DNA of 64,000 nt from Elusimicrobiota bacterium (GCA_023249675.1 JAHFCE010000008.1:39246-103245); one strand, 5' to 3'. Shown: positions 6,681 through 30,930, counted from the stretch's first letter. The notes: generated by a model from the sequence alone, not told the origin. Numbers and translations: made by a program.

Positions 6681-6721
6681 GGGACAATGTACATGAAAAC
6701 TGCCGGGAATAACAGCCGGGG

Positions 6722-6730
6722 TGGTATAAT
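6722..6730 (+). promoter_or_regulatory. Extended -10 element TGgTATAAT ending 6 nt before the GTG start of the cyclase gene (leaderless transcript suspected)
   Basis: TGGTATAAT at 6722-6730, GTG start at 6737. Not tested. Confidence 0.3.
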
Positions 6731-6736
6731 AAGGGC

Positions 6737-9997: not shown

Positions 9998-10001
9998 CCG
10001 C

Positions 10002-10769: not shown

Positions 10770-11713
10770 GGAACGGCCTCGGCGTCGGAGAAACGCCGGC
10801 CGGCGTGATGCAAGAAGGCGTCTTCGAGGCTCGGGCGCGAGAGGCTCACGGTGCGCAGGCGCCCGGGGAAGGCCTCGACGAGCTGAGGGATGAAGGCATG
10901 GCCGGCGGCGCGCTCAAGGCGCAGCTGGTCGCCGAACGCCCGCGGGGTGACGCCGAAACGCTGCGTGATCTCGTCGCGCAGTCCCGAGGCGTCGTCTGTT
11001 TCGATGGTGATCACGTCGCCGCCGATCTCGGCCTTCAGCGCGGAGGGCGTTCCCATGGCCACGATCTTTCCCTGATCGAGGATGGCGACGCGGTCGCAGC
11101 GGTCGCCTTCGTCCATCAGGTGGGTGGTCGTCATGATCGTCGCGCCCTCGGCCTTGAGTGTCCGCAGGTGCTCCCACAGGTCCTGGCGCGCGGCGGGGTC
11201 AAGGCCCGTCGAGGGCTCATCGAGAAGTATGACGGACGGCTTGTGAAGCAGACTTTTGGCCAATTCGACTCGGCGGCGCAGGCCGCCGGACAAGGTTCCG
11301 CACAGGTCGCTCGCGCGGGCGGCGAGCCGGTAGCGGGACAACATCTCGTCGATACGCTTCGTTAAGCTTGTTCCAGAAAGGCCGTACAGCCGCCCGCCAT
11401 GGATGAGGTTCTCGCGCACGGTCAGTTTATTGTCGAGGCTCGGGCTCTGGAAGACGACGCCAAGAAGCGGTCGTACCGACGCGGGATCGGCGACGAGGTC
11501 GCGACCCAGGATCGCCGCCGATCCGCCGGTGGGCGCAAACGCAGTGGCGAGGATCCGGAACAAGGTGCTCTTGCCTCCGCCGTTGGGGCCGAGCAGGCCG
11601 AACAGTTCGCCTTCGGCGACGGAAAAAGAAACGCCGTTGAGCGCTCGGCGAGCGGCCGTCTTTCGTGCGGCGGGGTACTCGTGAATGACGCCCTTGACGA
11701 CGACCGCGTTCAT
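10766..11713 (-). CDS. ABC transporter ATP-binding protein
   Basis: Walker A (GPNGGGKST), ABC signature (LSGGLRRR) and Walker B (ILLDEPSTGLD). Start set at MNAVVVKG, because the longer ORF overlaps the neighbouring gene. Confidence 0.8.
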   Translation of the reverse strand: MNAVVVKGVIHEYPAARKTAARRALNGVSFSVAEGELFGLLGPNGGGKSTLFRILATAFAPTGGSAAILGRDLVADPASVRPLLGVVFQSPSLDNKLTVRENLIHGGRLYGLSGTSLTKRIDEMLSRYRLAARASDLCGTLSGGLRRRVELAKSLLHKPSVILLDEPSTGLDPAARQDLWEHLRTLKAEGATIMTTTHLMDEGDRCDRVAILDQGKIVAMGTPSALKAEIGGDVITIETDDASGLRDEITQRFGVTPRAFGDQLRLERAAGHAFIPQLVEAFPGRLRTVSLSRPSLEDAFLHHAGRRFSDAEAVP

Positions 11714-12285
11714 TTTTTCAGTCCGGTCCACGGCGTCTCGGCGTGTCCGGTCTCTTTGTTGACGAAACGGGCGGCGACAAAAAGCCAAGTCGATAAACGA
11801 TTCATGTAGACGATCACGCCTTCCGGGACCGCCTCGACCGAGGCGAGCGCGACGACCGCGCGTTCAGCGCGGCGGCTCACGGCGCGCGCCAGATGCAGGG
11901 CCGCGCCCGCGCGCCCGCCGCCGGGAAGGATGAAGGTCTTCAGCGGGGCTAGATTTTTGTCCCAGGCGTCGATCTCGGTCTCGAGGCGCTTCGGGGCGTC
12001 GGCGGGAAGGCCTGAATCGAAGGGGGGCGGGAGCTTGGCGAGTCTATCGGCGGGCGTGGCGAGCAAGGCGCCGATGACGAAGCACTCGGCCTGGATGCGC
12101 GCCAGGCCTCGATCCACCGAGACGAGAGCGGGGTCCTCGCGGAAAGCCGAGCGCGCCGAGCCGAGCGCGCTGTTGAGCTCGTCGATGTCTCCATACGCCG
12201 CCACGCGCGGATGGCTCTTGGGCACGCGGCCGCCGCCGAACAGGCCGGTCTCGCCTTTGTCGCCCGTGCGCGTGTAGATCGCCAC
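11710..12285 (-). CDS. PduO-type ATP:cob(I)alamin adenosyltransferase
   Basis: N-terminal motif IYTRTGDKGETGL. GTG start at 12285 overlaps the upstream stop (ATGA-like). Confidence 0.7.
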   Translation of the reverse strand: MAIYTRTGDKGETGLFGGGRVPKSHPRVAAYGDIDELNSALGSARSAFREDPALVSVDRGLARIQAECFVIGALLATPADRLAKLPPPFDSGLPADAPKRLETEIDAWDKNLAPLKTFILPGGGRAGAALHLARAVSRRAERAVVALASVEAVPEGVIVYMNRLSTWLFVAARFVNKETGHAETPWTGLKK

Positions 12286-12286
12286 T

Positions 12287-13006
12287 CTAGAACTGGGCGC
12301 CAAGTCCGAGGTCGAAGCCCGGGACGCCGTGGCGTACAGTGTAGGCGCCGCGCAGGCTGACCAGGGGCAGGGGATGGACGTCCACACCGGCCGAGAAGCG
12401 CGAGCCGCGCGCGGCGGCCTTCGTGCCGGCCACGCCCGCCGTCGTCGCCGCGCCGACCTTGACCTCGGTGACGTCGTAGCCGGCGATGAAGAACGGCTTG
12501 ACGATCGGCAGGTTCCAGGTCGCGGCCGCGTTGAGGCTGCCGTGCGACGCGCTGAAATACTTATGGTTGACCTTGTCGCCGAAGGCCGAGATCGAGACGT
12601 TCGGCAGGAAGGAGTCCACGAGGCTGGTGCGGTACAGTCCGTAGCGCAGCCCGCCGCCGTAGATTGAGGCGCCCTGAGCGCTGAGGCCGTGCACGATGAC
12701 GTCGATCTTGAAGGGCAGCCCCACGCCGGCTTCGATCAAGGGCAGGCCGAAGGCCTTGACGCCCGCGTCGCGCAGGACGCGGTCGTTCTTGTCCGGCCGG
12801 AGCTGGACCGCGGCGACAGAACCCACCCAGAACCCGGGCAAACCGAGCGTGCGGCCGGTGTGGGCCGAGGCTCCGCCCAGAACGCCGCCGAGGTCGAGGG
12901 CGAAGGGCTTGATGTACTCGTTGCGCACGGCGGTCGAGAAGTCGGCGAACGGATCGGCGTGCGCGGATGACGCGAGCAGGGCGAGAACGGCGAGGATGAT
13001 TTTCAT
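12287..13006 (-). CDS. Outer-membrane beta-barrel protein (signal peptide, alternating amphipathic strands, C-terminal Phe)
   Basis: Signal peptide (ASSAHA), Gly/aromatic-rich strands, terminal ...GLGAQF. Confidence 0.5.
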   Translation of the reverse strand: MKIILAVLALLASSAHADPFADFSTAVRNEYIKPFALDLGGVLGGASAHTGRTLGLPGFWVGSVAAVQLRPDKNDRVLRDAGVKAFGLPLIEAGVGLPFKIDVIVHGLSAQGASIYGGGLRYGLYRTSLVDSFLPNVSISAFGDKVNHKYFSASHGSLNAAATWNLPIVKPFFIAGYDVTEVKVGAATTAGVAGTKAAARGSRFSAGVDVHPLPLVSLRGAYTVRHGVPGFDLGLGAQF

Positions 13007-13010
13007 GAGG

Positions 13011-13700
13011 CTATTTTGCCAAATTCGGGCGCTTCTTGACGAGGTCCTGGCGTCCCGCCCAGTTGTAGATGAAGCACCAATGCATGGCCGCGCCGACGAT
13101 CACAAGGAAGTGGAACAACTCGTGCGCGCCGAGAACGCCCGTGAAGATCACGGGCCCCTCGAGATAGTCGATGAGAGCGCCGCAGATGTAGGCGATGCCG
13201 CCGAGAAATAGGAGCGTGGTCTCCTTCCAGCCGTAGCGCGCCGTGATGTGGGCAAACGAGATCACGCCGAGCGAGGCGACGCCGATGTAGGCGAGGACGA
13301 TCGACCAGTAGGGCAGCCGGTTGAAATAGACGTCGATGAGCACGAGGCAGGTGAGCGCCGCGCCCCAGAACAGCGCGGTCAGGCCCCAGCGCCAGCGTCC
13401 CGTGAACAGCAGGATGTGCACGGGCGTGGCCGAGCCGGCGATGACGATCCAGATGCCGGCGTAGTCGAGCCGCCGGAAGAAGATGCGCCAGGGCCCGGGA
13501 GGCAGGCCATGATACACGCCGCTCATCGAGAAGAGGAACAGCAGCGAGGCGCTGAAGATCAGCAGCGACGAGCTGCGCAGCGCGTCGCCGCGGCCCTTCT
13601 TGTGCAGAAAGTAGGTTCCGCACAGAGCGCCGCAAGCGGCCGTGAGGTGGCTGAGGCTCGAGACCGGGTCATTGAGGCCGAAATAGTGTACGAGCCTCAT
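13011..13700 (-). CDS. Hemolysin III / PAQR family channel protein
   Basis: Seven TM helices with conserved His motifs (YHGLP, HELFH), typical of the HlyIII family. Confidence 0.7.
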   Translation of the reverse strand: MRLVHYFGLNDPVSSLSHLTAACGALCGTYFLHKKGRGDALRSSSLLIFSASLLFLFSMSGVYHGLPPGPWRIFFRRLDYAGIWIVIAGSATPVHILLFTGRWRWGLTALFWGAALTCLVLIDVYFNRLPYWSIVLAYIGVASLGVISFAHITARYGWKETTLLFLGGIAYICGALIDYLEGPVIFTGVLGAHELFHFLVIVGAAMHWCFIYNWAGRQDLVKKRPNLAK

Positions 13701-16737: not shown

Positions 16738-16814
16738 GGCGCGTTCGTCTAGCGGCCTAGGACGCTTCCCTCTCAAGGAAGAGATCACGGGTTCAAATCC
16801 CGTACGCGCCACCA
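16738..16814 (+). tRNA. tRNA-Glu(CTC)
   Basis: 77-nt cloverleaf. Acceptor GGCGCGT/ACGCGCC, anticodon loop CTCTCAA, T-loop GGGTTCAAATCCC, CCA encoded. Confidence 0.85.
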
Positions 16815-16887: not shown

Positions 16888-17145
16888 TTAGCTGAGGTGC
16901 TTGCTGACGAGCTTCGTCATCTCGAACATGTTGACAACGGCCTTGCCCGCGAACACGGCCTTCAGCGTCGCGTCAGCGTTGATGTTGCGGCGGTTCTTCT
17001 TGTCCTGCAGGTCGTTCTTCTTGATGTAGGCCCAGAGCTTCCTCGCGACCTCGGTGCGGGGCAACGGCTTGCTGCCGACGATCTCCGCGAGCTTGTCGCT
17101 TGGGGTCAGGGGTTTCATGAACGCCGCGTTCGCCTTCTTCGCCAT
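16888..17145 (-). CDS. SWIB/MDM2 domain protein
   Basis: 85 aa with SWIB pattern (KLAEIVGSKPLPRTEVARKLWAYIKKNDLQD). Confidence 0.7.
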   Translation of the reverse strand: MAKKANAAFMKPLTPSDKLAEIVGSKPLPRTEVARKLWAYIKKNDLQDKKNRRNINADATLKAVFAGKAVVNMFEMTKLVSKHLS

Positions 17146-17227: not shown

Positions 17228-17701
17228 TCAAGGATTCCTCGTCGTGGCTTCGACGAGGCGGATCGCGTCGCGGCCTGACTCGCGGACCTCATCGGGGACG
17301 TGGGGGAGCCCCAGTTCGTCATGAGTGTGCCAGCGGATGTCGTCGCTTTCGTCCGGACGGTGGGTGTGGGCGCCGGCCTTGGCGCGCAGGTAGTAGATGA
17401 AGTCAATGTGGTGGTTGTGACCGGGGATTTCCTCGATCTGCACGCGCTGGGGCTCGTGCAGGGACTCGACGCGGCCGTTGTGTATGATCGGCGCGCGCGG
17501 GGGCGTCATGAACTCGGCCTCGAGGCCGGTCTCCTCTAATACCTCGCGCAGAACGCCCTCGTCCGTCGTTTCACCGTCCTCAATGTGTCCGCCCGGAGGC
17601 AGCCACATTCCAAGCTTTTTGTGCTTGAGGAGGAGGGTCTTGCCGTCGCGGACCAGATAGCCGGTGGCGACGAAGCAGTAGCGCCGCGGCGGTGCGCTCA
17701 C
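17228..17701 (-). CDS. NUDIX hydrolase
   Basis: Nudix box GGHIEDGETTDEGVLREVLEETGL. Confidence 0.8.
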   Translation of the reverse strand: MSAPPRRYCFVATGYLVRDGKTLLLKHKKLGMWLPPGGHIEDGETTDEGVLREVLEETGLEAEFMTPPRAPIIHNGRVESLHEPQRVQIEEIPGHNHHIDFIYYLRAKAGAHTHRPDESDDIRWHTHDELGLPHVPDEVRESGRDAIRLVEATTRNP

Positions 17702-18498
17702 GCGGGCAACTCCCGCGCCCAGGCGGCGAGAGCGGCGGCGAGTTCCGCGGGTTTGTCGAGCGGTATGTGGTGATGGGCGTCCATGATCTCAATGCCGCGG
17801 CCGCGCGGCAGGGCCGCGACGACTCGGGTCATGGCCTCGCGGGGCAGGATCGAGCTGTGCTCGCCGCGCACGATCAAGGCGTCCGCGGAGATTTTCGCAA
17901 GCTGCGGCCACACCGGGCCGTACGGAAAAGCAAACGAGCGCCAGTCGAACTTCCAGGACCAGCCGCGGGGGCCTTGCCGCACGCCGTGGCGCCCGAGCGC
18001 TCGGAGAGCGGCCGCGTCGAGCAAGGTGCCGGGAGGCTGGAGGCGGAACTTGGCGAGCATCGCTTCTTCATTCTCGTAAATCGGCTGGGGGCGCGAGCGG
18101 GTTTTTTCGTACTTGCGCTCGCGCGACGCGTAGACATCCGGCAGAAAGTCGATCGCGCAGACTCCGCGCAGGTGAGCGCTGCGCCGCTCGGCGTAGTCGA
18201 GGGCGATGCGCGCGCCCATCGAGTGCCCCACGAGAATGAAGCGCTCCCAGCCGAGGGCCTTGCGCGCGCTCTCGATATCGTCCACCCACGCCGAGCCGGT
18301 ATAGGCTTCGTTCTCGAGCCAGTCGCTGTCGCCGTGGCCGCGGAAATCGAGCGCGACCGCGTGGAACACGCCCTTCCAGAGGGGAGCGACCGCATCCCAC
18401 CAATGCGTGTGCGCGGCCATGCCGTGCGTCAGGAGGACCGGGACTCCGGGGCCGCCCCAGTCGCGCAGGTGGACCGCGCCGGCCTTGCGGCTCGTCAC
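17698..18498 (-). CDS. Alpha/beta hydrolase fold protein
   Basis: GHSMG nucleophile elbow. Conserved HG oxyanion region. Confidence 0.7.
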   Translation of the reverse strand: MTSRKAGAVHLRDWGGPGVPVLLTHGMAAHTHWWDAVAPLWKGVFHAVALDFRGHGDSDWLENEAYTGSAWVDDIESARKALGWERFILVGHSMGARIALDYAERRSAHLRGVCAIDFLPDVYASRERKYEKTRSRPQPIYENEEAMLAKFRLQPPGTLLDAAALRALGRHGVRQGPRGWSWKFDWRSFAFPYGPVWPQLAKISADALIVRGEHSSILPREAMTRVVAALPRGRGIEIMDAHHHIPLDKPAELAAALAAWARELPA

Positions 18499-21400
18499 GG
18501 CGCCTTGTCGGCGGGGACGATCGCGGCCTGATAGATCTCGTCGTAGGTCCGCACGGCCGTGAGCTTGACGGCGTCGCGCACCTCCTTCGGGATACCCTCG
18601 AGGTCCTTGAGGTTGGCGAAGGGGAAGATCACTTCCGTGTAGCCCATGCGGTGCGCGGCCATGACCTTTTGCTTGAGGCCGCCGATCGGCAGGACGTCGC
18701 CGCGCTTGGTGATCTCTCCGGTCATCGCCAGGCCGGCAACGACCGAGCGTCCGGTGAGATCGCTGAGGATCGCCGTGACCATCAGGCTGCCCGCCGAGGG
18801 CCCGTCAATCTTGCCCGCCGGCGTGATGTTGATGTCCATGTCGATCTTCGTGAAGTCGATCTTTTCGAGGCCGAACTTGGCCGCGTTCTTCCTCACGTAG
18901 GCGTACGCGTTCTTGGCCGAGTCCTCGATGTCTTGGCCGAACTGCTTGCGCAGGGTCAACTTGCCGGTGCCGGGCTCGCTCCAGGCCTCGACGTTCAGCG
19001 TGGAGCCGCCGTAGTCGTTGACCGCGAGTCCCGTCGCCACGCCGACGCCGTTCTGCGCCATCTGGCGCGGGCTGAACTCCTCGCCGCCGAGGTAATGCGC
19101 GATGTCTTTTTCGTCGACGACGCCGGGGACGTTCTCGCCGCGCGTCTCGATCCAGGCGGAGATTTTGCGCAGGACGGACGCGACTTTCTCGCGCAGCCCG
19201 CGCACGCCGGCCTCCATCGTGTAGCCCTCGATGAGGCGGCGCAGGGCCCCTTTCGTCAGCGTCGCCTCAGCAGCTTTGAGACCCGCCTCCTCGAGCTCCT
19301 GAGGCACGAGGTGGCGTTCGGCGATCGCGATCTTTTCGAGCGTCGTGTAGCCCTCGAACTCGATGAGTTCCACACGGTCGCGCAGGGGCCCGGGAATGTT
19401 GCTCAGCTCGTTGGCGGTGACGATGAACAGCACCTCGGAGAGGTCATAAGGAACGTCCAGGTAGCGGTCGCGGAAGGTGTTATTCTGCTTCGGGTCCAGG
19501 ATTTCGAGCAAGGCCGCGGTCGGGTCGCCGGCGTTGCTGTTGCGGCCCATTTTGTCGACCTCGTCCATCAGCATGACGGGATTGACCGTGCCGGCGGCCC
19601 TCATCTGGCGCATGATCTCGCCGGGCATCGAGCCGACGTAGGTCCGGCCGTGTCCGCGCAGCACCGTCTCGTCGTGGACGCCCCCGAGCGAGAGGCGCAC
19701 GAACTTTCGGCCGAGGGCTTGGGCGATCGCGGCGGCAATCGAGGTCTTGCCCACGCCGGGGGGGCCCGTGAAGGCGATGATCGCACCCTTCTTGGACCCC
19801 GTCCTCTTGCGCACCGCCAGGAACTCGAGCACGCGCTCCTTGACCTTCTCCAGGCCTGCGTGATCCCGGTCGAGCGTCCCGCGCGCCGCCGCGATGTCGG
19901 TCACGTCCTCCGTGCGCCGGCTCCAGGGGACGTCTATCAGCCACTCAATGTAGGTCCGAACCTTCTGCGTCTCGGAGTCCCTCGGGGCCATCTGCGCCAT
20001 CTTCTCGTACTCGCGCGTGGTGATCTCTTGGATCGCCTCGGGCATGCCGATCGCCTTCATCTTCGCCTGGAGGGCCTCGATCGAGTCGAGGCTTCCGCCC
20101 CGGCCGTCTTTGGGGTCCGCGGCTCGATGCTCCGCCGGCTTTTTCAGCACGCGAACCCACGTCGAACGGTTGCCGCGTTTGCTGAACTTTAGATTTTCGA
20201 TGAACGCCCGCGTCAGCTCCGCGCCGCGCGCGAGCTCGGCGTCCTTCTTGTCGCCGACCGCTTTCCGGAGCACTTCGAGCGTCGCGACCGCGTCGAGGCC
20301 CGCGGCGAGGTCGGCGCCGATGTTCTGGCGCCGTTCCGCGGCATAGTGGACGTTGGACAGCAAGGACAGGCAGAGTCGGACGACGTCGAGCGGGTCTTTG
20401 GAGAGGGAGCTGCCCAGGGTTTTCTCGTACAGACGCAGCGAGCTCGTGATCGCCTCGAGCTTCGCATTGCCGAGCGCGATCGAGACCTGTTCAAGCGCCT
20501 TGGACTTCGGGCTCAGGCCCTTGTGTGCGGAGTACTTCTTGAAGACCGCGTCGAGGCGCGCGACCGCGCGCAGGTGGCTGGCGGCGTCGGGCGCGTTGGC
20601 GAGCTTGATCGCGTCGATCGCCTCGTTGTGCAGCTCCCAGATGTTGTCGGAGCTGTTCCCGGCCTGCTCGATCAGATCGAAGTAGACGACCTTGCCGTTG
20701 GCGAGAACGAGAAGCTCGCCGCGCGCGGCCAGAGCGAAGATCGCCGCGTTCATCTGCGGCATGTCGAGGCCCAGGGCCTTGCCCGCGCGAGTGAGCGTCT
20801 CGGGCGCGACGGTCTCGCCGGCGGAGGTATGCGCGCGGATCTGTGCGGCGAAGGCCGCGGTCTGCTGGCCCGAGGGCGTCCACGATTCCTCGGGCGCGGG
20901 CGTTTTGGACGTCGGCCCTTCATATAGGAAATCGCGGGCGTCGAATTGTTCAAGCAGAAGGAGTGCCGCGATATAGCCGTCGGCGACCTCGTCCTCGGCG
21001 GGGCGGCCGTCCTTTTTCAGCGGATCGAGCGAGTCGACCAAGGCGACGAGCTTGCGGTGCACGCGCGCGGGCATCGGCGGGACGTAGCCGGCCTGATAGG
21101 TCGCCGTCTTGAGCCACGCGAGGGCTTCCGCCAGGTCGGCGACGCGCTCTGTCAGCTTCGGCGTCAGGGTTTTGAGGCTTTCGAGGTCCTTCTTATGCGC
21201 GCCGAGGAACCCCGAGAAGAACTCGAGCATCGCATTGGCGCGCAGGACCTTGGCTTCCTCGAGCTGGGGAAGCGTCTGGCCCGGTTGGCCGGCCTTCTCG
21301 TAAGCGGCGACGGCCCGGTCCGCTTGGGCGACGGCGCGGGCGTGGTCGGCGGGATTGGCGCTGTTCAACAGCGCGACGGCGTTGCTGGCGAGGACGTCGG

Positions 21401-22103
21401 CGGCGTGTTCGGGGGCGGGCGCATGGGCGGGGGCGTCTACGCGCGCGCGGAAACTGAAGTAAACCGTGTCTTTGTTGTCTCGCATCGCGAGATGGCCCTC
21501 TTGGAGTAGCTCGGTGAACAAGGTTCCGGTTTTCTCCGGGTCGAGGCCGAGCCTCGCGCCGATCTCGCCGACCTTCGCGTAGGTCGCGATCGTGCCCGGC
21601 GCCGTTTCGTTGCGGATGCCGGCGAGGAGCCCGGCCTTGGCGTCCGGCGGCGCGTTCCCGCCGGGGGGCGCGGTCTTCTCGGAGCGAGGCAGGGCCTTGG
21701 GGCCGGAGCTCTCGGAACCGGCGACGTCGAAAGCCGCGGCGCGGCGTTCGGACGCGCCTTCAAACGCGCGGCCGGCCTGCGCCTTCGATTCGCTACCGCT
21801 TGACGTCGGCGTGAGCGTTACGGTTTGGCGCGCCGCGCCCGCGAGCGCCGCGCGCGGATCGGGGGTTGCGGCCTGCGCCGCTGTAGGCGCCGTGAGCAGA
21901 GATGGGGTCAGCCCCGCCGCGGACGCAGTGAGCGGCGGCGTGTTCGTCGCGGGGGCCTCAAGTCGCGGGAGCGCGAGCGACATGGTGAGTCCCGCTTCGC
22001 CCGCGACGGGCACACGCGCGACGCCCGTTGCGAAGGCAGGCCCGGGCGCCGCCATGGAAAGGGCGAGGGCGGCCGCCAGGCATCGGCGGGTGAACCGTCT
22101 CAT
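18495..22103 (-). CDS. lon: LonA-type ATP-dependent protease with atypical N-terminus (signal-like segment, A/P-rich linker, two winged-helix-like module repeats in place of the LON N-domain)
   Basis: AAA+ (GPPGVGKTS) and protease Ser (DGPSAGS). LonA linker motif (YIEWLIDVPW). N-terminus is MRRFTRRCLAAALALSMAAPGPAFA followed by low complexity. Confidence 0.85.
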   Translation of the reverse strand: MRRFTRRCLAAALALSMAAPGPAFATGVARVPVAGEAGLTMSLALPRLEAPATNTPPLTASAAGLTPSLLTAPTAAQAATPDPRAALAGAARQTVTLTPTSSGSESKAQAGRAFEGASERRAAAFDVAGSESSGPKALPRSEKTAPPGGNAPPDAKAGLLAGIRNETAPGTIATYAKVGEIGARLGLDPEKTGTLFTELLQEGHLAMRDNKDTVYFSFRARVDAPAHAPAPEHAADVLASNAVALLNSANPADHARAVAQADRAVAAYEKAGQPGQTLPQLEEAKVLRANAMLEFFSGFLGAHKKDLESLKTLTPKLTERVADLAEALAWLKTATYQAGYVPPMPARVHRKLVALVDSLDPLKKDGRPAEDEVADGYIAALLLLEQFDARDFLYEGPTSKTPAPEESWTPSGQQTAAFAAQIRAHTSAGETVAPETLTRAGKALGLDMPQMNAAIFALAARGELLVLANGKVVYFDLIEQAGNSSDNIWELHNEAIDAIKLANAPDAASHLRAVARLDAVFKKYSAHKGLSPKSKALEQVSIALGNAKLEAITSSLRLYEKTLGSSLSKDPLDVVRLCLSLLSNVHYAAERRQNIGADLAAGLDAVATLEVLRKAVGDKKDAELARGAELTRAFIENLKFSKRGNRSTWVRVLKKPAEHRAADPKDGRGGSLDSIEALQAKMKAIGMPEAIQEITTREYEKMAQMAPRDSETQKVRTYIEWLIDVPWSRRTEDVTDIAAARGTLDRDHAGLEKVKERVLEFLAVRKRTGSKKGAIIAFTGPPGVGKTSIAAAIAQALGRKFVRLSLGGVHDETVLRGHGRTYVGSMPGEIMRQMRAAGTVNPVMLMDEVDKMGRNSNAGDPTAALLEILDPKQNNTFRDRYLDVPYDLSEVLFIVTANELSNIPGPLRDRVELIEFEGYTTLEKIAIAERHLVPQELEEAGLKAAEATLTKGALRRLIEGYTMEAGVRGLREKVASVLRKISAWIETRGENVPGVVDEKDIAHYLGGEEFSPRQMAQNGVGVATGLAVNDYGGSTLNVEAWSEPGTGKLTLRKQFGQDIEDSAKNAYAYVRKNAAKFGLEKIDFTKIDMDINITPAGKIDGPSAGSLMVTAILSDLTGRSVVAGLAMTGEITKRGDVLPIGGLKQKVMAAHRMGYTEVIFPFANLKDLEGIPKEVRDAVKLTAVRTYDEIYQAAIVPADKAP

Positions 22104-25100
22104 TTCTTCCTCTCTGCCGTGAACGCGCCCTTGGCGGCGTTCCAGTCCACAGTGATCGCATCGCCCTGAGCGATGCGGTCCTCGAGCTCGGCCGCGACGA
22201 TTGCGTCGGGCAGCTTGTGGTCGACAATCTGCTTGAGCGGGCGGGCGCCATATTTCTGGGCTTCGGTGCGCTTGAGAATCTCGGCGCGGGCGCCGGGCGT
22301 GAGCGTCATTCTCATGCTGCGCTTCTCCCGGAGTTGGTTTTCGAACTTCTTTAGGAGGAGATCAAGAATCTTTTCCATCTGGGGCCTGCCGAGGTCTTTG
22401 AACACCACGACCCCGTCGTCCTCGCCGACGCGGCCGATGAGTTCCGGCCGCAGCGCGGCCCGAAGCGCGGCAAGGTACTGCGCGTGCCGCGCGGCCGCGG
22501 CTTCCTCGGGCTGCTCGCTCCCGGAGCGAAAGCCCATGTGGGGGCGCCCGGGCGAGTCGACGCCCTCGTCGTCTCCGGCGAGCGCGCCGCCGATGTTCGA
22601 GGTCATCATGACGATCGTGTGGGAGAAGTCCACTGTGCGGCCACGGCCATCGGTGAGCCGCCCGTCCTCAAGGATTTGCAGGAGGATGTTCAACACCTCG
22701 GGGTGAGCCTTCTCGATTTCGTCGAACAGGATGACGGAGTACGGGTTGCGGCGGATTTTTTCGGTGAGCTGGCCGGCCTCCTCGTAGCCGACATAGCCGG
22801 GGGGCGCTCCGACCATGCGGGAAACCGCCTCCTTGCCTACGTACTCGCTCATGTCCAGGCGAACCATCTTATTCTCCGAGCCGAACACGATCCTCGCCGT
22901 TTGGCGCGCGAGCTCGGTTTTGCCCACCCCTGTCGGGCCGAGGAAGATGAATGCGGCGGTCGGCTGTTTGGGATCGCGCAGGCCCATGCGGCCGCGCTGC
23001 ACGCCCTTGGCCACCTTTGAGACCGCCTCATCCTGGCCGATCACGGCCGCGCCGAGCTTTTCGGGCAGGTTCTTGAGCCGGTCCTTTTCCGCGGCGCTGA
23101 TCTCGCCGGCGGGAATACCGGTGCGCCGGGAGATTTCCTGGGCGATGTCTTCCGGAAGGACCTCGCGCCGCGCCTTCGCGGCGCCTGACTGTGCGGCCAA
23201 GGAGGCCCTCATCTTGACTGCGACGCTCGCGTCGTCGAGCAGGTCGAGGGCCGAGTCGGGAAGGTTGCGGTCCGTGATGTAGCGCAAGGCCAGCGCCACG
23301 ACGGCCTTCACCGTTTCCGCGCCGATCACGACTCCTTGCTTTTTTTCGTAGATCGACTTGACGCCCGCGACGATGTGTTCAGCCTCCTCCTGAGTTGGAG
23401 GCAGGAGCTGGATGGGGTTGAAGCGGCGGGCAAGCGCGCCGTCCTTCTCGATCGTGCGGTACTCATCCAACGTCGTCGCTCCGATCAGCGAGATCGAGCC
23501 ATCGGCGAGGGCGGCCTTCAACATGTTGGCGGCGTCCTGCGTGCCTTCCTTGATGGCCCCGGCTCCGACGAGCGTGTGGATCTCGTCGATGAAGAGACGG
23601 ACCTTTCCCTGCGAGTCGCGGGCCTCTTGTATGATTTTGACCATGCGTTTTTCGAAGTCGCCGCGAAAAGTCGTGCCGGCGACGACCGCGGCGAGGTCGA
23701 GGTGGATGATGTTGACGCCCTCAAGTTCGGGGATCTTTCCGTCGACGATCATCTGCGCCAAGCCGTTGACCATCTCGCTCTTGCCCACGCCCGGCGCGCC
23801 GATGATGAGGGGATTGGTTTTCTTGAGGCGCAGCAGGGTCTTCACGATCTGGAGCATCTCGGACTCGCGGCCGATCAGCGGGGGCAGTTTGCCCTCGACG
23901 GCGAGGCGCGTCACGTTGGCGCCGTAGGCGTTGAGCGCCGTGTAACTCTTGTCGTCCTTCGCGATAAGCGGGAACAGCCCGCGGCGGATATTGGCGACCG
24001 GGATCAGGTCGATGTCGTTGCCGGGAAGCGGCGCGCCCTTGTGGAATGCCTGGAACAGGGCCCAGCCGGCGGACATGGCCTTCTGCTGGTCGGGGTCCCA
24101 GTGCTGGAACGGCGGGAGCTTCACGGCGAATTTGGCGAGTCGAGCCTGTTTGTCGGCATCGAGCGGCGTTGGATCGGCCTGATTAGCGGCATAGAATTGG
24201 CCCTCGAGCGCCTTCAAGACGTCATCGATGAACGCGTGCGCGTTCTGGTTGACCGGGTCCGCGGGCTTCACGGGGAGCTTCTTGCCGTACGCGGAGAGCA
24301 CGTCGCGCGAGAGTTCGAGGGCCGCGTTCTTATAGAGGATGGCCACTTCGGCGCGGGCCGCGTCGGCGCCGGCGGCCGCGAGGAGGCGCAGGGCTTCGCC
24401 GAAAGAGGCGAGGGCGAGCACGTGAGAATCCGGGCTGCGGCCGTTGAGCAGGTCGATGCCCTCGATTGTCTTTTCGTTGGCCCCATCGAGCAAGGTGTCG
24501 TTGGCCCGGGCTCCGTCGTCGCGCTGGACCGCTTGGCTGTAAATGTAGACGCGGCCGGAGAAAAGACGGACGAGCTGGCCTTCCTTGGCGAGCTCGTCGA
24601 CCGCCCGGTTGCCCTGGGCGGCCGGCACGCCGGCGCCGATCGCGAGCTGGTTGATGCGCATGCGGTCGAGGGCCTCTCCGGGCTTCACATTTTGGGCCAG
24701 CGCGTCGCGCATCGCTTGGACCTGGTCGGCGGTCGGCTTGGCCGGTGTGGGGTCGCTTGCGGCGGCGGCGGAGCGCAGCGGGGTCAGAGCGGAGAGCACG
24801 TCGAACCTTTCCCCGCCTTCGAAGGCGGCGGCGGCGGCGGACTTGGACGCGCTGGGACTCAGCGCCGGAGTGAGGTTCTGGGCCGAGAGCGCGGCGCCAT
24901 CGAGAACGGCCTTGGCGGCGGCCGGCTGGCCCTGGGCGGGGATCGCGGCTGCAACGAGACCGGCCGGCATCGGAGCGGAAAGGGGCGTCTCCGCGGGGCT
25001 TGCGGGTGAAAGCGTCGCGGGAAGTTTCGGCGTCATGGAGAGGCCGCCGAGCGTGGCGCCGATGGCGCCGACTGTTCCGGAGGCGGGGACCGCGGCCCCC

Positions 25101-25225
25101 CGGGCTTTGCCCACCTGGGCGAAGGCCTCGTGATTTCCTGGAAGCGCGACGAGGAAGGCGGCCAGAAGAGAGCGGGACAGGAGGGTCGAGGGGCGGCCGT
25201 TCATCTTTTTCATGAGTGTCTCCAA
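22100..25225 (-). CDS. ClpA/ClpB-family double-AAA+ unfoldase with atypical N-terminus homologous to that of the adjacent Lon
   Basis: D1 (GAPGVGKSEMV) and D2 (GPTGVGKTELAR) AAA modules with a short inter-domain linker (ClpA/C-like). N-terminal signal-like segment MKKMNGRPSTLLSRSLLAAFLVALPGNHEAFA. 4-nt overlap with lon. Confidence 0.85.
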   Translation of the reverse strand: METLMKKMNGRPSTLLSRSLLAAFLVALPGNHEAFAQVGKARGAAVPASGTVGAIGATLGGLSMTPKLPATLSPASPAETPLSAPMPAGLVAAAIPAQGQPAAAKAVLDGAALSAQNLTPALSPSASKSAAAAAFEGGERFDVLSALTPLRSAAAASDPTPAKPTADQVQAMRDALAQNVKPGEALDRMRINQLAIGAGVPAAQGNRAVDELAKEGQLVRLFSGRVYIYSQAVQRDDGARANDTLLDGANEKTIEGIDLLNGRSPDSHVLALASFGEALRLLAAAGADAARAEVAILYKNAALELSRDVLSAYGKKLPVKPADPVNQNAHAFIDDVLKALEGQFYAANQADPTPLDADKQARLAKFAVKLPPFQHWDPDQQKAMSAGWALFQAFHKGAPLPGNDIDLIPVANIRRGLFPLIAKDDKSYTALNAYGANVTRLAVEGKLPPLIGRESEMLQIVKTLLRLKKTNPLIIGAPGVGKSEMVNGLAQMIVDGKIPELEGVNIIHLDLAAVVAGTTFRGDFEKRMVKIIQEARDSQGKVRLFIDEIHTLVGAGAIKEGTQDAANMLKAALADGSISLIGATTLDEYRTIEKDGALARRFNPIQLLPPTQEEAEHIVAGVKSIYEKKQGVVIGAETVKAVVALALRYITDRNLPDSALDLLDDASVAVKMRASLAAQSGAAKARREVLPEDIAQEISRRTGIPAGEISAAEKDRLKNLPEKLGAAVIGQDEAVSKVAKGVQRGRMGLRDPKQPTAAFIFLGPTGVGKTELARQTARIVFGSENKMVRLDMSEYVGKEAVSRMVGAPPGYVGYEEAGQLTEKIRRNPYSVILFDEIEKAHPEVLNILLQILEDGRLTDGRGRTVDFSHTIVMMTSNIGGALAGDDEGVDSPGRPHMGFRSGSEQPEEAAAARHAQYLAALRAALRPELIGRVGEDDGVVVFKDLGRPQMEKILDLLLKKFENQLREKRSMRMTLTPGARAEILKRTEAQKYGARPLKQIVDHKLPDAIVAAELEDRIAQGDAITVDWNAAKGAFTAERKK

Positions 25226-26242: not shown

Positions 26243-27103
26243 TTAGTCGCGGCCGCCGCGGGGCAAGGTCGGGAGCAGGGCGCGCGCGATGCTCGGCACG
26301 AACTCGGGGCGCAGGAGGCGTGGATCGTAGGGCGCCAGGCGCTTCTCGTTCTCGCGCAGGCACAGCTCGACGAACTCGCGCGGCGAGATGTCGCCGAACT
26401 GGGCGTGCGCGTTCATCGTGAAGTTGTCCTGCCCGCTGTCGGCCGCGCCCTTGATGCGCATCGCGGTTTTCAGCCGGCTCAGCGCCTGCAGCCACATGGC
26501 CAGGCCGCGCCGGAACACGTAGCGCGGGCGGCCGGCGTAGGGCAGCCGGGCCTGGTTGTAGGCGACCCAGTTCACGTGGAAGATGATGTGGCGGCCTTCT
26601 TCCTGCATGATCGGCTCGAACAGCTCCACGAGCGGTGGAGGGAAGAAGCCGGAGTCGCGCGCGAGCGCGAACAGGCCGAAGGCGAAGAACGAGTCGAAGC
26701 ATTCCCCGTAGCCGATGCGCATGAACGCCCAGCTCGGATCGGCGGGCGCCGCGGGGGAGAACGCCGGGACCGGGATGCCGTACTTCTCGGTCAGGAGCTT
26801 GAGAATTTCGGCATGGCGCTGCTCCTCGTAGCCCTGCAAAGTGATCGCTTTCGACAGGATGGGATCTTTCTCGGCGGCGCCCATCGTCAGCACGGCGAGC
26901 GCTGTCTCCGCTTCGGTGCGCACCGCCTCTTCCCAGATCGGCAGAGCCTGCAGGCGCTTGACCACGTCGCCGCTCAGCGCGGGCCATTGGAGCTCGGCCG
27001 GCACATAGGGATCGTGGCTTTCCGTGAAAAAGGAGCACAAAAGCTCCTTGTGCGCGGGCGAGCCGATCGCGAGAGGGGGGCGAGCTGGGACGGTGGTCTT
27101 CAT
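26243..27103 (-). CDS. Ferritin-like diiron-carboxylate protein (acyl-ACP desaturase/AurF-like), 7 bp upstream of lpxL
   Basis: Two ExxH motifs (YEEQRHAEIL, MQEEGRHIIF) about 90 aa apart. Start set at MKTTVPARP. Confidence 0.5.
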   Translation of the reverse strand: MKTTVPARPPLAIGSPAHKELLCSFFTESHDPYVPAELQWPALSGDVVKRLQALPIWEEAVRTEAETALAVLTMGAAEKDPILSKAITLQGYEEQRHAEILKLLTEKYGIPVPAFSPAAPADPSWAFMRIGYGECFDSFFAFGLFALARDSGFFPPPLVELFEPIMQEEGRHIIFHVNWVAYNQARLPYAGRPRYVFRRGLAMWLQALSRLKTAMRIKGAADSGQDNFTMNAHAQFGDISPREFVELCLRENEKRLAPYDPRLLRPEFVPSIARALLPTLPRGGRD

Positions 27104-27198
27104 AACGTTCCCGACGTAAATTCTACAAAATTGACAATTTGGGGGCACGCTGAAAATTAACATTGACGTCCGCCCCGGGCGGAGGCTATGCTTGCCGG

Positions 27199-27998: not shown

Positions 27999-28331
27999 AG
28001 CTTGCTTGGCCGCCAGGTCTGACTGCGCGCCGGGAACCTCGTCGAGGCTCGCGACCTTGACGACGCGGCCGAACGTGGCCTGGATCGCGTCGGTGATCTC
28101 CTGGTAGACTGGGCCCGAATCGATGTTGCCCATGCCGCCGATCCGGCTTCGCAGGTATCCCATCGCCTTCTCGGTATTTTGCGACGGCATGATTGCCACG
28201 GAAAGATTCCTGTAGCGCGAACTGCCCGGGGCCTGGATACCCGCGAAAGGATCCGTGCGGGGCGGCGGAGTGTTGCAGCCCGTGAACGCCGCGAGTCCAG
28301 CGCAAAACGGCAGCAGCAGAATCCTTGTCAT
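27999..28331 (-). CDS. Putative lipoprotein (N-terminal about 110 codons look coding; 3' end unresolved)
   Basis: MTRILLLPFCAGLAAFTGC lipobox. The frame stays open to 27483, antisense to the TRL paralog, where it becomes Arg-rich junk. Confidence 0.3.
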
Positions 28332-28417
28332 CGTGTCTCCGTGAAAGCGACCGCGTCAAATTATACCAAGCGATCCAAGGACGCAAGTCCGCGAATGCGG
28401 CTTCCTGTTCGCTCTCC

Positions 28418-28436
28418 GTCTAACGCCGGGTTGGGC
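28418..28436. repeat. Short GTCTAAC..GTTGGGC palindromic core pair just past the last cassette ORF (possible degenerate terminal attC)
   Basis: RYYYAAC and GTTRRRY cores only 5 bp apart. Too short for a complete attC. Confidence 0.3.
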
Positions 28437-28446
28437 TTCAGCCTGC

Positions 28447-28857
28447 TTACCAGGCCAGCAAATCCTTCAAGTACCACGGCTCAAGTGCCGCAATGACCAA
28501 TATCCGAGCTGTCGCCATCAGAACGATCGCCTTCCACAAGGCCAGCGTCTTCCTGTTTCCGATCAGCGCGCCGCTCACGCCGATTTCGAGAGGCAAGAGG
28601 AGAAAGCCCAAATATGGAAGTTGAGATAAAAACAGGACGATCGGCATGCTCGCGCGTAATGCGGCCCAATGGGCCTTCGGAAGATCGATATAAAACAGGA
28701 AAGCCCATGCGAGGCCAAAAAAGAATATCGGCGAGCAGAAGATCGCATAGACGCCGGTGCTCTGATTGAAAAAAAATCCGAGGCCAAGCACCGCGACGGC
28801 AGTCGATCCGGCGATGAGTCTCTTGCGTCTGGTCGATTCACTCATATGTGAGCCCAA
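28447..28857 (-). CDS. Cassette ORF: small polytopic membrane protein, unknown function
   Basis: Four TM helices. Low-GC. Confidence 0.4.
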   Translation of the reverse strand: MGSHMSESTRRKRLIAGSTAVAVLGLGFFFNQSTGVYAIFCSPIFFFGLAWAFLFYIDLPKAHWAALRASMPIVLFLSQLPYLGFLLLPLEIGVSGALIGNRKTLALWKAIVLMATARILVIAALEPWYLKDLLAW

Positions 28858-28861
28858 CGAG

Positions 28862-28916
28862 AGGGTGAGCGGCGGCTATGAAGGTACTCCTTTTACGCTG
28901 TTAAGTCGTTCTTGAC
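28862..28916. repeat. attC-like site (short, about 55 bp): GCCCAAC...GTTAAGT
   Basis: Left half aligns with the other attC copies (GAGGGTGAGCGGCGGCTATGAAG). Overlaps the stop of the DUF2975-like ORF. Confidence 0.5.
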
Positions 28917-29370
28917 CGGCATTCTGCAAAATCCGTTCAAACATCACCGCCGCTGTGGCGCTAAGAGCAGAACCGAAGGTAATGAGGGCGCCCATAAAAA
29001 CACCGCCTGCACGATCATCACTGTTGCTCAACATAATGAAAAGTTCTCCTACCGCAACAGAACCGATAATGGCTAACGCACAAAGTTTTATAGTCCGCAG
29101 AGCCGCCTCTGTTGCTTGCGAGAACGCCTTGTTTTGTCCGATGTATCCCAACACCTTGAATGCCTGATAGAGTGCCACATAAAATGGAATGGACGCTAAA
29201 TACGCATACGCCAAAAAGGGGTCTTTGAAATAGATCTCAAAGAGCGTGGCGTGCGCGTTTCTACCTTCGATGCGGGGCTCCCAAAGCATGAGAGCAAGAG
29301 CCCCAATGCTGGTGAGCATAATGACTGCCTGAAGGAATTTCGTTGGAATGACGAGTGACCGCTTTTTCAT
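28876..29370 (-). CDS. Cassette ORF: DUF2975-like membrane protein
   Basis: Four TM helices with YoaS/DUF2975-like pattern. Low-GC. Confidence 0.4.
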   Translation of the reverse strand: MKKRSLVIPTKFLQAVIMLTSIGALALMLWEPRIEGRNAHATLFEIYFKDPFLAYAYLASIPFYVALYQAFKVLGYIGQNKAFSQATEAALRTIKLCALAIIGSVAVGELFIMLSNSDDRAGGVFMGALITFGSALSATAAVMFERILQNAGQERLNSVKGVPS

Positions 29371-29379
29371 CTTATGGCC

Positions 29380-29456
29380 GCCGAACGCCGAGGATGGGCG
29401 GCGGCTATTAAGATATTCCGCACTGAGTCTTCGTCCGCTCTATCCATTAGTTAGGC
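29380..29456. repeat. attC-like site (77 bp): GCCGAAC...GTTAGGC
   Basis: About 80% identical to the 30092-30171 copy, including the internal inverted repeat GCGGCGGCT/..GAG..CGC. Confidence 0.6.
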
Positions 29457-30065
29457 AGCCTCCGACGTATTCTGTGTTGCGCTTACATCAAGATCTCGCA
29501 GCAGGCCATCATGAAGGTCGTAAATCCAGCCGTGCACGGTCAGAGGACGCCCCTTGGCCCATGCCGAGGTGAGAATTGGAAGACGGCTGAGCTCTCGAAC
29601 CTGGCTAATCACGTTGAGTTCGCAGAGGCGTCGCCAACGCGCGTCCGCGTCGGTTCTACCGTCAATATCGGCCGCTTGGGAACGGCGTATCTCGCGTATT
29701 GGTGCAATCCAGCGCTCAAGCGGCTTCGGAACGGGTGCCCCAAGTGCTGCTTGAACGCCGCCACAGCCATAGTGGCCGCATACGATGACATCTGTGGTGC
29801 CAAGAAATTCGATCGCATACTGAAGAACGGCGATGCAGTTTAAGTCATCCGCGCGAACGATATTGGCCACGTTGCGGTGAACGAACAACTCGCCGGGTTC
29901 GAGGCCGACGATTTCGTTGGCCGGCACACGACTGTCCGCGCAACCGATCCAAAGGTAGCGGGGTGTCTGAATTGCGCACAGGCGTGTAAAATACTGCGGA
30001 TTCTGACTAACGCGCTTGGTTGCCCAGGCGCGATTGTTGGCGAAAAGTTCCGGCAAGTAACGCAT
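29451..30065 (-). CDS. Cassette ORF: beta-class carbonic anhydrase
   Basis: CADSRV and HYGCGG zinc-ligand motifs. Confidence 0.8.
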   Translation of the reverse strand: MRYLPELFANNRAWATKRVSQNPQYFTRLCAIQTPRYLWIGCADSRVPANEIVGLEPGELFVHRNVANIVRADDLNCIAVLQYAIEFLGTTDVIVCGHYGCGGVQAALGAPVPKPLERWIAPIREIRRSQAADIDGRTDADARWRRLCELNVISQVRELSRLPILTSAWAKGRPLTVHGWIYDLHDGLLRDLDVSATQNTSEAA

Positions 30066-30091
30066 TTGTTTCCCTTGAACCTAAATGGCTG

Positions 30092-30171
30092 GCCTAACGC
30101 AGGGGCTGACCAGCGGCGGCTATCAAGATATTCCGCACTGAGCCGCCGGCCGTTCTATCCATTGGTTAGGG
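30092..30171. repeat. attC-like site (80 bp): GCCTAAC...GTTAGGG
   Basis: Terminal inverted cores plus an internal inverted repeat (CAGCGGCGGCT...GAGCCGCCGGC). Lies between the brnA stop and the carbonic anhydrase start. Confidence 0.65.
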
Positions 30172-30402
30172 CAATGGGTGACGAGTTGCATAGGCATCAA
30201 TCAGTTTGCGGATCATCTTCTGATAGGGCGTGTGATATTTCTGCGCGGCCTTCTTGAAGAAGGCAACGCTCGACTTGCTGAGCGCCATGGTTATCTTCAC
30301 GCTCTCCTCCTTGAAGGCCAGTTCTTCAGGAGGGGGCAGGGAATCCCTGACCACGCTCAACGCGCCAAGAGGTTCATCCGTGTATTTGATTTTCTTTTTC
30401 AT
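30166..30402 (-). CDS. Cassette ORF: BrnA-like ribbon-helix-helix antitoxin
   Basis: MKKKIKYTDEPLG... with C-terminal RHH pattern (VKITMALSKSSVAFFKKAAQKYHTPYQKMIRKLIDAY). Its start lies inside the 3' end of the BrnT-like frame. Confidence 0.6.
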   Translation of the reverse strand: MKKKIKYTDEPLGALSVVRDSLPPPEELAFKEESVKITMALSKSSVAFFKKAAQKYHTPYQKMIRKLIDAYATRHPLP

Positions 30403-30646
30403 AAAGAGCCTTCCCTTTTCGCCAGTAGCCCGCTCCAAAGAGGCGAATCTTTTTCTCTCTGTACGTGAATCGAACGGTGAGGATTCCGTCGCCGACGCGG
30501 CCGAAGCAATACAACCGTTTTTCCTTCTGACTGTGCTCCAGATCTTCCGCGATAACTCTTTTGCTATCAGCGAATGCATGTTGAGCCGTTTCAAATGAAC
30601 CATGCGCCTCTTTAAGTATATATTGTATATGTATAAATAGCCATAC
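30374..30646 (-). pseudogene. BrnT-like (DUF497) toxin reading frame lacking a canonical start; out of frame with the SD-preceded ATG at 30603
   Basis: Frame -3 encodes ...HGSFETAQHAFADSKRVIAEDLEHSQKEKRLYCFGRVGDGILTVRFTYREKKIRLFGAGYWRKGKALYEKE*. The only ATG, preceded by AAGAGG, is in another frame (MVHLKRLN...). The 145-aa six-frame ORF is a chimera of both. Confidence 0.5.
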
Positions 30647-30699
30647 TTATTTATGGTCTAAAATAACATCATTTCGTCCCTGACGATTTGGCTGAATTG

Positions 30700-30777
30700 C
30701 CCTAACGCAGAGGATGACGAGCGGCGGCTATCAAGATCTCCATGCAAGCCGCCGTCTCGTCAATCCAATGGTTCGGT
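30700..30777. repeat. attC-like site (78 bp): CCCTAAC...GTTCGGT (degenerate cores)
   Basis: Aligns over about 80 bp with the 30092-30171 copy (AGCGGCGGCTATCAAGAT shared). Confidence 0.55.
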
Positions 30778-30800
30778 GTCCACTGCAATTTCATTTTAAC

Positions 30801-30873
30801 GCCGTTCATGCCGTTGCCTTCAAAGCCGTTTCGCCGTTCAGCCGTTTACGCCGTTTTGTCCGTCCTTCCGTTA
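30801..30873. repeat. Array of six GCCGTT direct repeats (8-15 bp spacing) plus one TCCGTT, between the caspase stop and the attC-like site
   Basis: GCCGTT at 30801, 30810, 30825, 30833, 30841 and 30850. TCCGTT at 30868. Confidence 0.5.
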
Positions 30874-30930
30874 CCCTGCATTAGAAATCTTTCTGCGGAC
30901 ACAAAATTAAAAATGTTTGAGATCATGGAA

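Follow-up and report, generated by a model that had tools for sequence, protein, structure and literature searches.

How can an enzyme that depends on the ATP of the cytoplasm begin with what looks like a signal for leaving it? The question is raised by two overlapping genes in a stretch of 64,000 nucleotides of DNA from an Elusimicrobiota bacterium (GCA_023249675.1, JAHFCE010000008.1:39246-103245; the whole stretch is here called the window), which encode a ClpA-type double-AAA+ unfoldase and a LonA-type protease, below simply Clp and Lon. Each protein starts with a leader that resembles a cleavable export signal, and the conflict between such a leader and the need for cytoplasmic ATP is a real topological paradox. 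The answer that we prefer, with a confidence that stops just short of an even chance, is that the two proteins belong to a cytoplasm-facing, envelope-associated set of AAA+ proteases that is specific to the Elusimicrobiota.

Intact engines behind a shared N-terminal cassette

The Clp gene occupies positions 22100-25213 on the minus strand (open reading frame call and Pfam), and its product has 1037 amino acids (aa) when read from the ATG at 25213 (MKKMNGR). An alternative TTG start lies four codons upstream, at 25225; the ATG is the more likely start, because GGAG sits six nucleotides ahead of it. The Lon gene is found at 18495-22103 on the same strand, to which all features of the two genes given below also belong, and encodes 1202 aa (open reading frame call and TIGR00763). 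Its ATG is preceded by AGAGAGGAAG and overlaps the TGA of the Clp gene by four nucleotides (ATGA), as an earlier note on this DNA had said, so that the two genes are translationally coupled.

In both proteins the engine is intact and the canonical N-domain is missing, a claim of the earlier note on which Pfam, TIGRFAM and PDB alignments agree. The Lon engine (18495-20093) takes in the last part of the N-terminal helical region and, after it, the AAA+ module and the S16 protease domain. Its Pfam matches (Lon_C, AAA, Lon_lid) are confined to aa 777-1196, with no Pfam match to LON_substr_bdg (PF02190), and TIGR00763, which passes its cutoff of 608 with 630.5 bits, aligns only over model positions 254-794. 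Residues 664-1199 make up the standard LonA unit of AAA+ module, lid and S16 domain, and match Lon structures in the PDB with E values of about 1e-143 to 1e-148, in alignments that begin only at residue ~235 of the Lon structure. Walker A (GPPGVGKTS), Walker B (MLMDEVDK) and the Ser-Lys dyad, with the Ser in DGPSAGS and the Lys in GGLKQKV, are all intact.

The Clp engine (22100-23944), with its D1 and D2 AAA+ rings, has Pfam matches (AAA, AAA_lid_9, AAA_2, ClpB_D2-small) only within aa 473-1026 and none to Clp_N; the M41 domain, too, is without a Pfam match in both Lon and Clp. The ClpA model TIGR02639 scores 582.6 against a cutoff of 993, which it does not reach, and aligns over positions 161-733. 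Residues ~427-1030 of Clp align with residues 169-741 of Escherichia coli ClpA in one continuous stretch, while the alignments with ClpB and ClpC each fall into two parts, from which it follows that Clp lacks an M-domain. A ClpB disaggregase identity was rejected, since this coiled-coil middle domain is absent and the ClpB model TIGR03346 scores 650, below its cutoff of 1232. The Walker pairs of both rings are intact (GAPGVGKSE and LFIDEIH in D1, GPTGVGKTE and ILFDEIEKA in D2), and the pore loops read TFRG and GYVG. In D2 the loop RPHMGFRSG (aa 890-898, 22520-22546) contains a tripeptide, [IML]-G-F, of the sort by which ClpA, ClpC and ClpX dock onto ClpP. Equivalent loops (PMGF, RIGF, TIGF, PIGF) occur in the relatives of Clp, and the loop is missing only in the relative P0043, to which we return below.

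In front of these engines both proteins have the same cassette, which consists of a leader, a spacer rich in Ala, Pro, Ser and Thr, a short conserved motif, and then one copy (Clp) or two copies (Lon) of a module with a winged helix and a helical bundle. The earlier note is upheld in its observation that the leader, the motif and a homologous winged-helix-containing module are shared. The signal-peptide-like leaders are MRRFTRRCLAAALALSMAAPGPAFA, followed by TG, in Lon (aa 1-25, 22029-22103) and MKKMNGRPSTLLSRSLLAAFLVALPGNHEAFA, followed by QV, in Clp (aa 1-32, 25118-25213), the latter being kept in P0009-P0016. Each has a basic n-region, a hydrophobic core of 9-12 residues, a Pro/Gly break and an A-F-A site. 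The leader sequence thereby has the elements of a Sec signal cleaved by signal peptidase I (SPase I): a basic n-region, an h-region of 7-15 residues, a helix breaker and small residues at -3 and -1. In nearly all of the ~43 N-terminally complete, otherwise divergent members of the family A-x-A is followed by Q or A; an automated count gave 42 A-x-A sites with a permissive regular expression that mis-picked some of them, and the sites were therefore checked by eye. A Tat signal, with its twin-arginine motif S/T-R-R-x-F-L-K, was considered for the Lon leader, which reads T-R-R-C-L-A, and was rejected, as RR is absent in P0005, P0007 and the Clp leader. No internal Met from which a leaderless Lon isoform could start is found near the module starts of the window Lon.

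The spacer has ~80-90 residues in the window proteins and ~80-125 across the family. At its end in Clp stands the motif SASKSAAAAAFEGGERFDV (aa 121-139, 24797-24853), and its counterpart in Lon is SESKAQAGRAFEGASERRAAAFDV (aa 104-127, 21723-21794). The pattern K-x-x-x-G-x-x-F-[DE]-[GA] is the most conserved short element of the family, and the distance between leader and motif varies from 87 to 128 residues in 13 genes.

Clp has its single module at aa 160-398 (24020-24736; alignment A1; hmmsearch E=4e-80), with an AlphaFold pLDDT of mostly 83-96, and Lon has copy 1 at aa 154-396 (20916-21644; profile E=1e-89) and copy 2 at aa 407-638 (20190-20885). BLASTP aligns the two Lon copies with E=3e-8, and Lon copy 2 and the Clp copy with E=1e-5. 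When 20 copies from the window and its relatives are brought together in alignment A1, they align end to end over ~235 aa, and the columns G, N, N, Y and G do not vary among them. With the 20-copy alignment as input, AlphaFold2 models Lon copy 2 with a pLDDT of 94.1 and a pTM of 0.92 as an N-terminal helix, a winged helix-turn-helix and then an all-helical bundle; the AlphaFold model of the Clp copy has the same fold. Foldseek, in a search that did not extend to predicted structures, returned no significant match to the whole module, the best having an E value of 0.1 and a TM score of 0.25 and the weak matches being FadR/GntR-FCD proteins. None of the 20 copies matched Pfam even at E<=10, with GntR, FCD and other helix-turn-helix families included, and the module profile found no sequence relative in the PDB. 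The earlier note had allowed that the module might prove to be an already described N-domain of Lon or Clp; by Pfam, PDB sequence and whole-module fold it matches none of these, and it appears from its sequence to be an undescribed domain.

What would such a module bind? Its winged helices range from neutral to acidic, and where a recognition helix would lie, the helix has a net charge of -3 to +1 in 20 of 20 copies. From this we read the modules as protein-binding rather than DNA-binding, so that of the structural proposal in the earlier note the winged helix stands, while DNA binding, and with it nucleic-acid recognition as the task of the module, finds no support.

A conserved tandem with exchanged engines

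The module is rare. When 5.8 billion proteins were searched by word index with each of the two N-regions, only 8 and 6 relatives came up; the module profile, run exhaustively by HMMER against 1.84 billion cluster representatives, found 54 proteins at E<=1e-3, of which 39 reached E<=1e-10. In either search, all members with a source name come from Elusimicrobia/Elusimicrobiota, those of the first from MAGs, and the same is true of seven loci in GTDB species genomes, the contigs of which were scanned with a narrower alignment, A2. Nearly every member with a complete N-terminus has the order of leader, spacer, motif and one to three modules, and the engine behind them is ClpA-like in 31 proteins and Lon in 7.

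The window locus is syntenic with three others, L001, L008 and L012. On one side the loci have in common PBP1, a TRL lipoprotein, a ~290-aa protein and LpxL; on the other side they share an alpha/beta hydrolase, a MOSC protein, a cyclic nucleotide (cNMP)-binding protein, a NUDIX protein, a SWIB protein and an S9 peptidase. Consider now what these loci contain between their common flanks. In the window, a 1-module Clp is followed by a 2-module Lon. In L008, a 1-module Clp is followed by a 2-module Clp. In L001 (JGI 3300009777 contig, 4210-13366) there are three Lons in tandem, where one has leader, spacer and motif before a canonical LON_substr_bdg domain, one has the leader and one module, and one has the leader and two modules; the engines of these three paralogues are nearly identical, while their N-regions differ behind a leader of the same type. 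The order of a 1-module protein and then a 2-module protein is in this way kept while the engines vary, from Clp+Clp (L008) over Clp+Lon (window) to Lon+Lon (L001). From this it follows that the cassette, and not a partnership between unfoldase and protease, is the conserved unit. The earlier note had proposed a survey of related genomes for the co-occurrence of Lon and Clp; the pair of cassettes is indeed retained, but the combination of a Lon with a Clp engine is not.

Other members extend the same picture. L004, L005 and L009, where the gene of a Clp engine ends just upstream of a 2-module Clp, are likely also Clp+Clp pairs. In the single Lon of L012, leader, motif and one module are combined with a canonical Lon N-domain, and in P0077 and P0078 a module-less prefix of leader, spacer and motif stands ahead of the canonical Lon N-domain. 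In the distant member P0043 (2405 aa; L011, 10001-17218) the Clp engine is joined to a membrane hairpin, a HAD-like domain and a metalloprotease of M48/HtpX-like type (HELSH), and has lost the [IML]GF loop. The Clp engine of P0046 (1811 aa), likewise a distant member, is followed by a membrane hairpin and a CPBP-like intramembrane protease region, and in P0039, too, a hairpin and further domains come after the engine. In P0040 (323 aa, from a 1-kb JGI contig) a terminal strand like that of an outer-membrane barrel (...NRLTLAFRF) stands directly before the module. If real, this would put a module in the periplasm and speak for export; it could not be verified, and it is not used as evidence.

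The prefix of leader, spacer and motif occurs a third time in the window, on a protein of a different kind. The gene at 47199-51578 (minus strand) encodes a membrane protein of 1459 aa with the leader MANFPRSSFCRFVASFLTFVLIQTAPGLSVYQAVA followed by Q, an Ala/Pro spacer and the motif SLEARFDEMRRHFDGSRPHKGG (RHFDGSR). Past the motif come a soluble stretch of ~160 aa, a basic patch ahead of the first membrane stretch, and then a polytopic membrane part that is very large and contains three repeats (FLPWMERVIRFL..., FVPFLKRFFNWAVKVL..., MLPFLRTAFETAMKVL...). No Pfam family matched this protein. Its prefix suggests an address, or a partner, that is common to different envelope-linked proteins and not reserved for AAA+ enzymes.

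The side of the membrane on which the engines work

In the reading that we prefer, the cassette would be a transferable N-terminal unit placed before interchangeable degradation engines, composed of leader, spacer, motif, in some relatives a hairpin, and one to three modules. The prefix would localise the engines at the membrane or tether them to it, and engines and modules would act at the cytoplasmic face of the inner membrane. The modules would stand in for the canonical N-domains as domains that recognise proteins, either substrates or adaptors, and the 1-module and 2-module proteins may be two specificity variants that are maintained as a pair. The LonA engine would degrade its substrates with its own S16 peptidase, and the ClpA-type engine would pass them on to ClpP by means of the HMGF loop. 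The idea, already contained in the earlier note, of a unit of a new kind, for localisation or for recognition, is a fair reading of the cassette.

The case for a cytoplasmic position comes from the intact ATPases, from the ClpP-type loop that the Clp members keep, from the hairpins and from the operon. In about 20 relatives a hydrophobic hairpin separates the motif from the first module; it is made up of an arm of ~19 residues, a short loop and a second arm of 13-17 residues (of the form APLAxLAGTLGG). It is preceded by 12-14 residues with a net charge of +2 to +5 and followed by K/R residues, and its loop is neutral or acidic. The basic patch ahead of the first membrane stretch of the 1459-aa protein is of the same tendency. 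In P0039, P0043 and P0046 there is a mirror-image hairpin past the C-terminus of Clp, again with basic outer flanks. When the positive-inside rule is applied to these flanks, both ends of the hairpin, and with them spacer, modules and engine, should be cytoplasmic. A leader that crosses the membrane would, in contrast, leave the spacer outside and the basic patch in breach of the rule, whereas with a leader that stays inside a canonical-looking signal serves another purpose. The parity of transmembrane segments between the Clp and M48 domains of P0043 was also tried as an indicator of sidedness and was rejected, as the count of segments is too ambiguous.

As regards the operon, the stop of the Lon gene overlaps the GTG start of an alpha/beta hydrolase gene (17698-18498, minus strand) by four nucleotides, this gene overlaps a NUDIX gene (17228-17701, minus strand), again by four nucleotides, and a gene with a SWIB/MDM2 domain (16888-17145, minus strand) is next. 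The arrangement of alpha/beta hydrolase, NUDIX and SWIB genes is also kept in L001, L008 and L012, which implies that the AAA+ genes are part of a long operon with cytoplasmic-type enzymes. A scan for promoters and terminators yielded nothing of use on the minus strand.

A number of observations weigh against this position. The leaders bear every feature of a cleavable Sec/SPase I signal, and these features are conserved across divergent members. They also resemble the signal of an exported protein in the same window, a trypsin-like peptidase (Trypsin_2; 39265-40287, minus strand) that begins with MKTTTMSAAALAAALSLAVPAVA followed by QVDG; here the site is AVA followed by Q, and the likeness, which includes the Gln at +1, means that ordinary signals of this organism look like the Lon and Clp leaders. 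The hydrophobicity of the leaders points in the same direction. By an insertion score that is a plain sum of Hessa free energies over 19 residues, and therefore a crude measure, the leaders of the family score +3 to +7 (those of the window +5 to +7) and the cleavable signals of OmpA, PhoA and MalE +2.4 to +8, while the true anchors FtsH TM1, LepB H1 and Bacillus subtilis LonB score -0.2 to -3.2 (FtsH TM1 and the LonB segment -0.2 each), with +0.3 for the anchor of PBP1 in the window's own genome. The leaders are thus grouped with the cleavable signals and not with the anchors, and a core of 9-12 residues falls short of the length that a stable transmembrane anchor needs. Neither Lon nor Clp of the window has a hydrophobic segment besides the leader, from which it follows that a leader working as an export signal would export the entire protein. 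A cytoplasmic model must therefore assign to such a sequence, with its short core, a role without precedent. Furthermore, tblastn with E. coli ClpP found no ClpP gene in the window and 13 related loci, and docking of the motif on the module received no support from AlphaFold of Clp aa 93-398, where motif and spacer have a pLDDT below 50.

These properties of the leaders are also what speaks for true export, which we consider doubtful, yet serious enough to be the first alternative. Here the leader is a Sec signal cleaved between AFA and T in Lon and between AFA and Q in Clp, and the whole Lon/Clp family is outside the cytoplasm, in the periplasm, on the surface or in another cell, with an ATP supply of another kind and with the hairpins of the relatives as tethers that have both ends outside. 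The canonical signal features, with Q or A at +1, are conserved family-wide, the window proteins have no stop-transfer segment, and the polytopic protein that carries the same prefix has at its N-terminus a soluble region of ~290 aa, for which a cleavable signal would be needed. A precedent from another domain of life is Plasmodium HSP101, an exported Hsp100 that is among the PDB matches of Clp. Against export, we know of no extracytoplasmic ATP-dependent protease in bacteria and of no ATP pool in the periplasm of diderms, while all ATPase motifs are conserved, which means that ATP is used. The ClpP-docking loop would require that ClpP is exported as well, the basic flanks of the hairpins would, if outside, break the positive-inside rule, and the genes lie in a syntenic locus of housekeeping type, where they are transcribed together with those of an alpha/beta hydrolase and a NUDIX protein, enzymes of cytoplasmic type. 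The fuller claim, that Elusimicrobiota export ATP-dependent Lon and ClpA-type machines through Sec, with leaders cleaved at A-x-A before Q or T and with motif and modules organising an extracytoplasmic proteolysis, we hold to be rather unlikely.

A type-I anchoring like that of FtsH is clearly improbable. In this case the leader would be cleaved, spacer and motif would form a periplasmic antenna, and the long arm of the hairpin would return the chain to the cytoplasm, so that the hairpin-less window proteins would be derived forms, either fully exported or no longer exported. Such an arrangement fits a signal-like leader together with cytoplasmic engines in the ~20 members with a hairpin; the second arm, with its 13-17 residues (APLAxLAGTLGG-like), is short and may fail to cross the membrane, and the fairly constant spacing of 87-128 aa between leader and motif suits a tail that spans the periplasm. 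However, the presence of the hairpin varies among orthologues, even inside the L008 tandem, where one gene has it and the other does not, and it is found in neither window gene, so that orthologues would be opposite in topology. The variation is most simply explained if the hairpin is topologically neutral, in which case the family is either all inside or all outside. In addition, Lys and Arg are found before and not after the long helix, which is the wrong side for a stop-transfer anchor.

The dedicated pair proposed by the earlier note, a Clp unfoldase that feeds the co-encoded Lon with both guided by a winged-helix module that binds nucleic acid, is very unlikely. The overlap of four nucleotides with its translational coupling, and the winged helix in the shared module, are in its favour. 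Its difficulty is that the same cassettes occur on Clp+Clp, Lon+Lon and Clp+Lon, that Lon has its own unfoldase ring and Clp a loop of ClpP type (HMGF), and that the winged helix is neutral or acidic, with a non-basic helix in the recognition position and no GntR or other helix-turn-helix match in Pfam. Finally, an artefact of mis-called starts, or of low-complexity Ala-rich N-termini that mimic signals in an Ala-rich genome of ~65% GC with a low-complexity spacer, is hardly credible when Shine-Dalgarno sequences precede both starts and leader, spacing and motif are conserved in dozens of divergent homologues from independent assemblies.

Neighbouring genes and known systems

Apart from the genes described, the window is ordinary chromosome of ~65% GC, with genes for PBP1, glutamine synthetase III, an M16 peptidase, LpxL and a ThiF/MoeB-like protein. 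By analogy with E. coli, where FtsH controls LpxC, the neighbours PBP1, LpxL and TRL lipoprotein give a hint that the substrates may be envelope-related. An anti-phage defence system with Lon or AAA components was considered and rejected: the PADLOC matches are weak and to generic AAA or Lon_C, a BrxL match at 2.5e-10 spans the protease domain only, and the locus, which is syntenic, has a housekeeping character.

A conserved 306-aa protein without a Pfam match is encoded at 26243-27163 (minus strand), with the TRL lipoprotein on one side and LpxL on the other; its counterparts in L001, L008 and L012 have 283-313 aa. The sequence motifs EEQRHAE and EEGRH suggest a di-iron fold for this protein. 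The GC content falls to 0.56-0.58 at 8001-10000 and 28001-32000, compared with ~0.65-0.69 elsewhere in the window, and the two stretches may be acquired segments. The second of them holds a DUF2975 protein and a 136-aa protein, both small membrane proteins, and a 524-aa protein without family. At 6737-9997 (plus strand) a signalling protein of 1086 aa combines adenylate/guanylate cyclase, AAA_16 and TPR regions. A tRNA-Glu(CTC) gene lies at 16738-16814 (plus strand), between the S9 peptidase and SWIB genes and on the opposite strand, and a tRNA-Cys(GCA) gene at 43428-43504 (minus strand).

N-domains of Lon and Clp determine what is degraded and where. In the present family a phylum-specific N-terminal cassette has displaced these domains and moves between engines, which makes it a natural case of a unit for specificity or localisation that evolves apart from the motor. 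If export were true, Lon and Clp of this family would be the first ATP-dependent proteases of bacteria to be placed outside the cytoplasm, and the rule that extracytoplasmic proteolysis is independent of ATP would be overturned; if the leader does not export, a signal-like sequence has found a new use in placing cytoplasmic machines at the membrane. A literature search returned nothing on signal-bearing Lon or Clp, nor on Elusimicrobia proteases. The module, the motif, the signal-like leader on Lon and Clp and the engine-swapping tandem thus appear to be undescribed, while the engines are of known kinds.

How, then, does the system compare with its known relatives? With LonA (MEROPS S16; E. 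coli and Meiothermus Lon, PDB 7fd4 and 3m6a) the window Lon shares the AAA+ module, the lid and the S16 Ser-Lys domain over aa 664-1199, but where LonA has the globular LON_substr_bdg domain, the window Lon has leader, spacer, motif and two modules, and we know of no LonA with a signal-like leader. With ClpA and ClpC, the class I Hsp100 partners of ClpP, Clp shares the two AAA+ rings, the absence of an M-domain of ClpB type and an [IML]GF-type loop in D2; ClpA and ClpC have Clp_N, whereas Clp has in its place the cassette of the neighbouring Lon. The module has the winged-helix fold in common with the GntR/FadR regulators, which combine a winged helix-turn-helix with the all-helical FCD domain, but differs from them in that the whole-module match is not significant (E>=0.1, TM score ~0.25), no family hidden Markov model matches and the helix in the recognition position is non-basic.

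Two further systems are comparable in how they may work. HSP101 of the Plasmodium PTEX complex (PDB 6e10 and 6e11, among the matches of Clp) is an AAA+ protein of ClpB/Hsp100 type with a signal peptide, which is found in the parasitophorous vacuole, outside the cytosol of the cell that makes it, and it is to our knowledge the only well-known precedent of an exported Hsp100; it is eukaryotic and, unlike the window Clp, without winged-helix modules, so that the likeness is conceptual only. The window proteins may also work in the manner of FtsH or of the LonB that is anchored in the membrane of Bacillus and archaea (LonBA is discussed in PMC9569914), as AAA+ proteases at the cytoplasmic membrane, possibly with envelope substrates. 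FtsH has two true transmembrane helices and an M41 domain and LonB has strongly hydrophobic anchors, whereas the window proteins have the short, signal-like core only.

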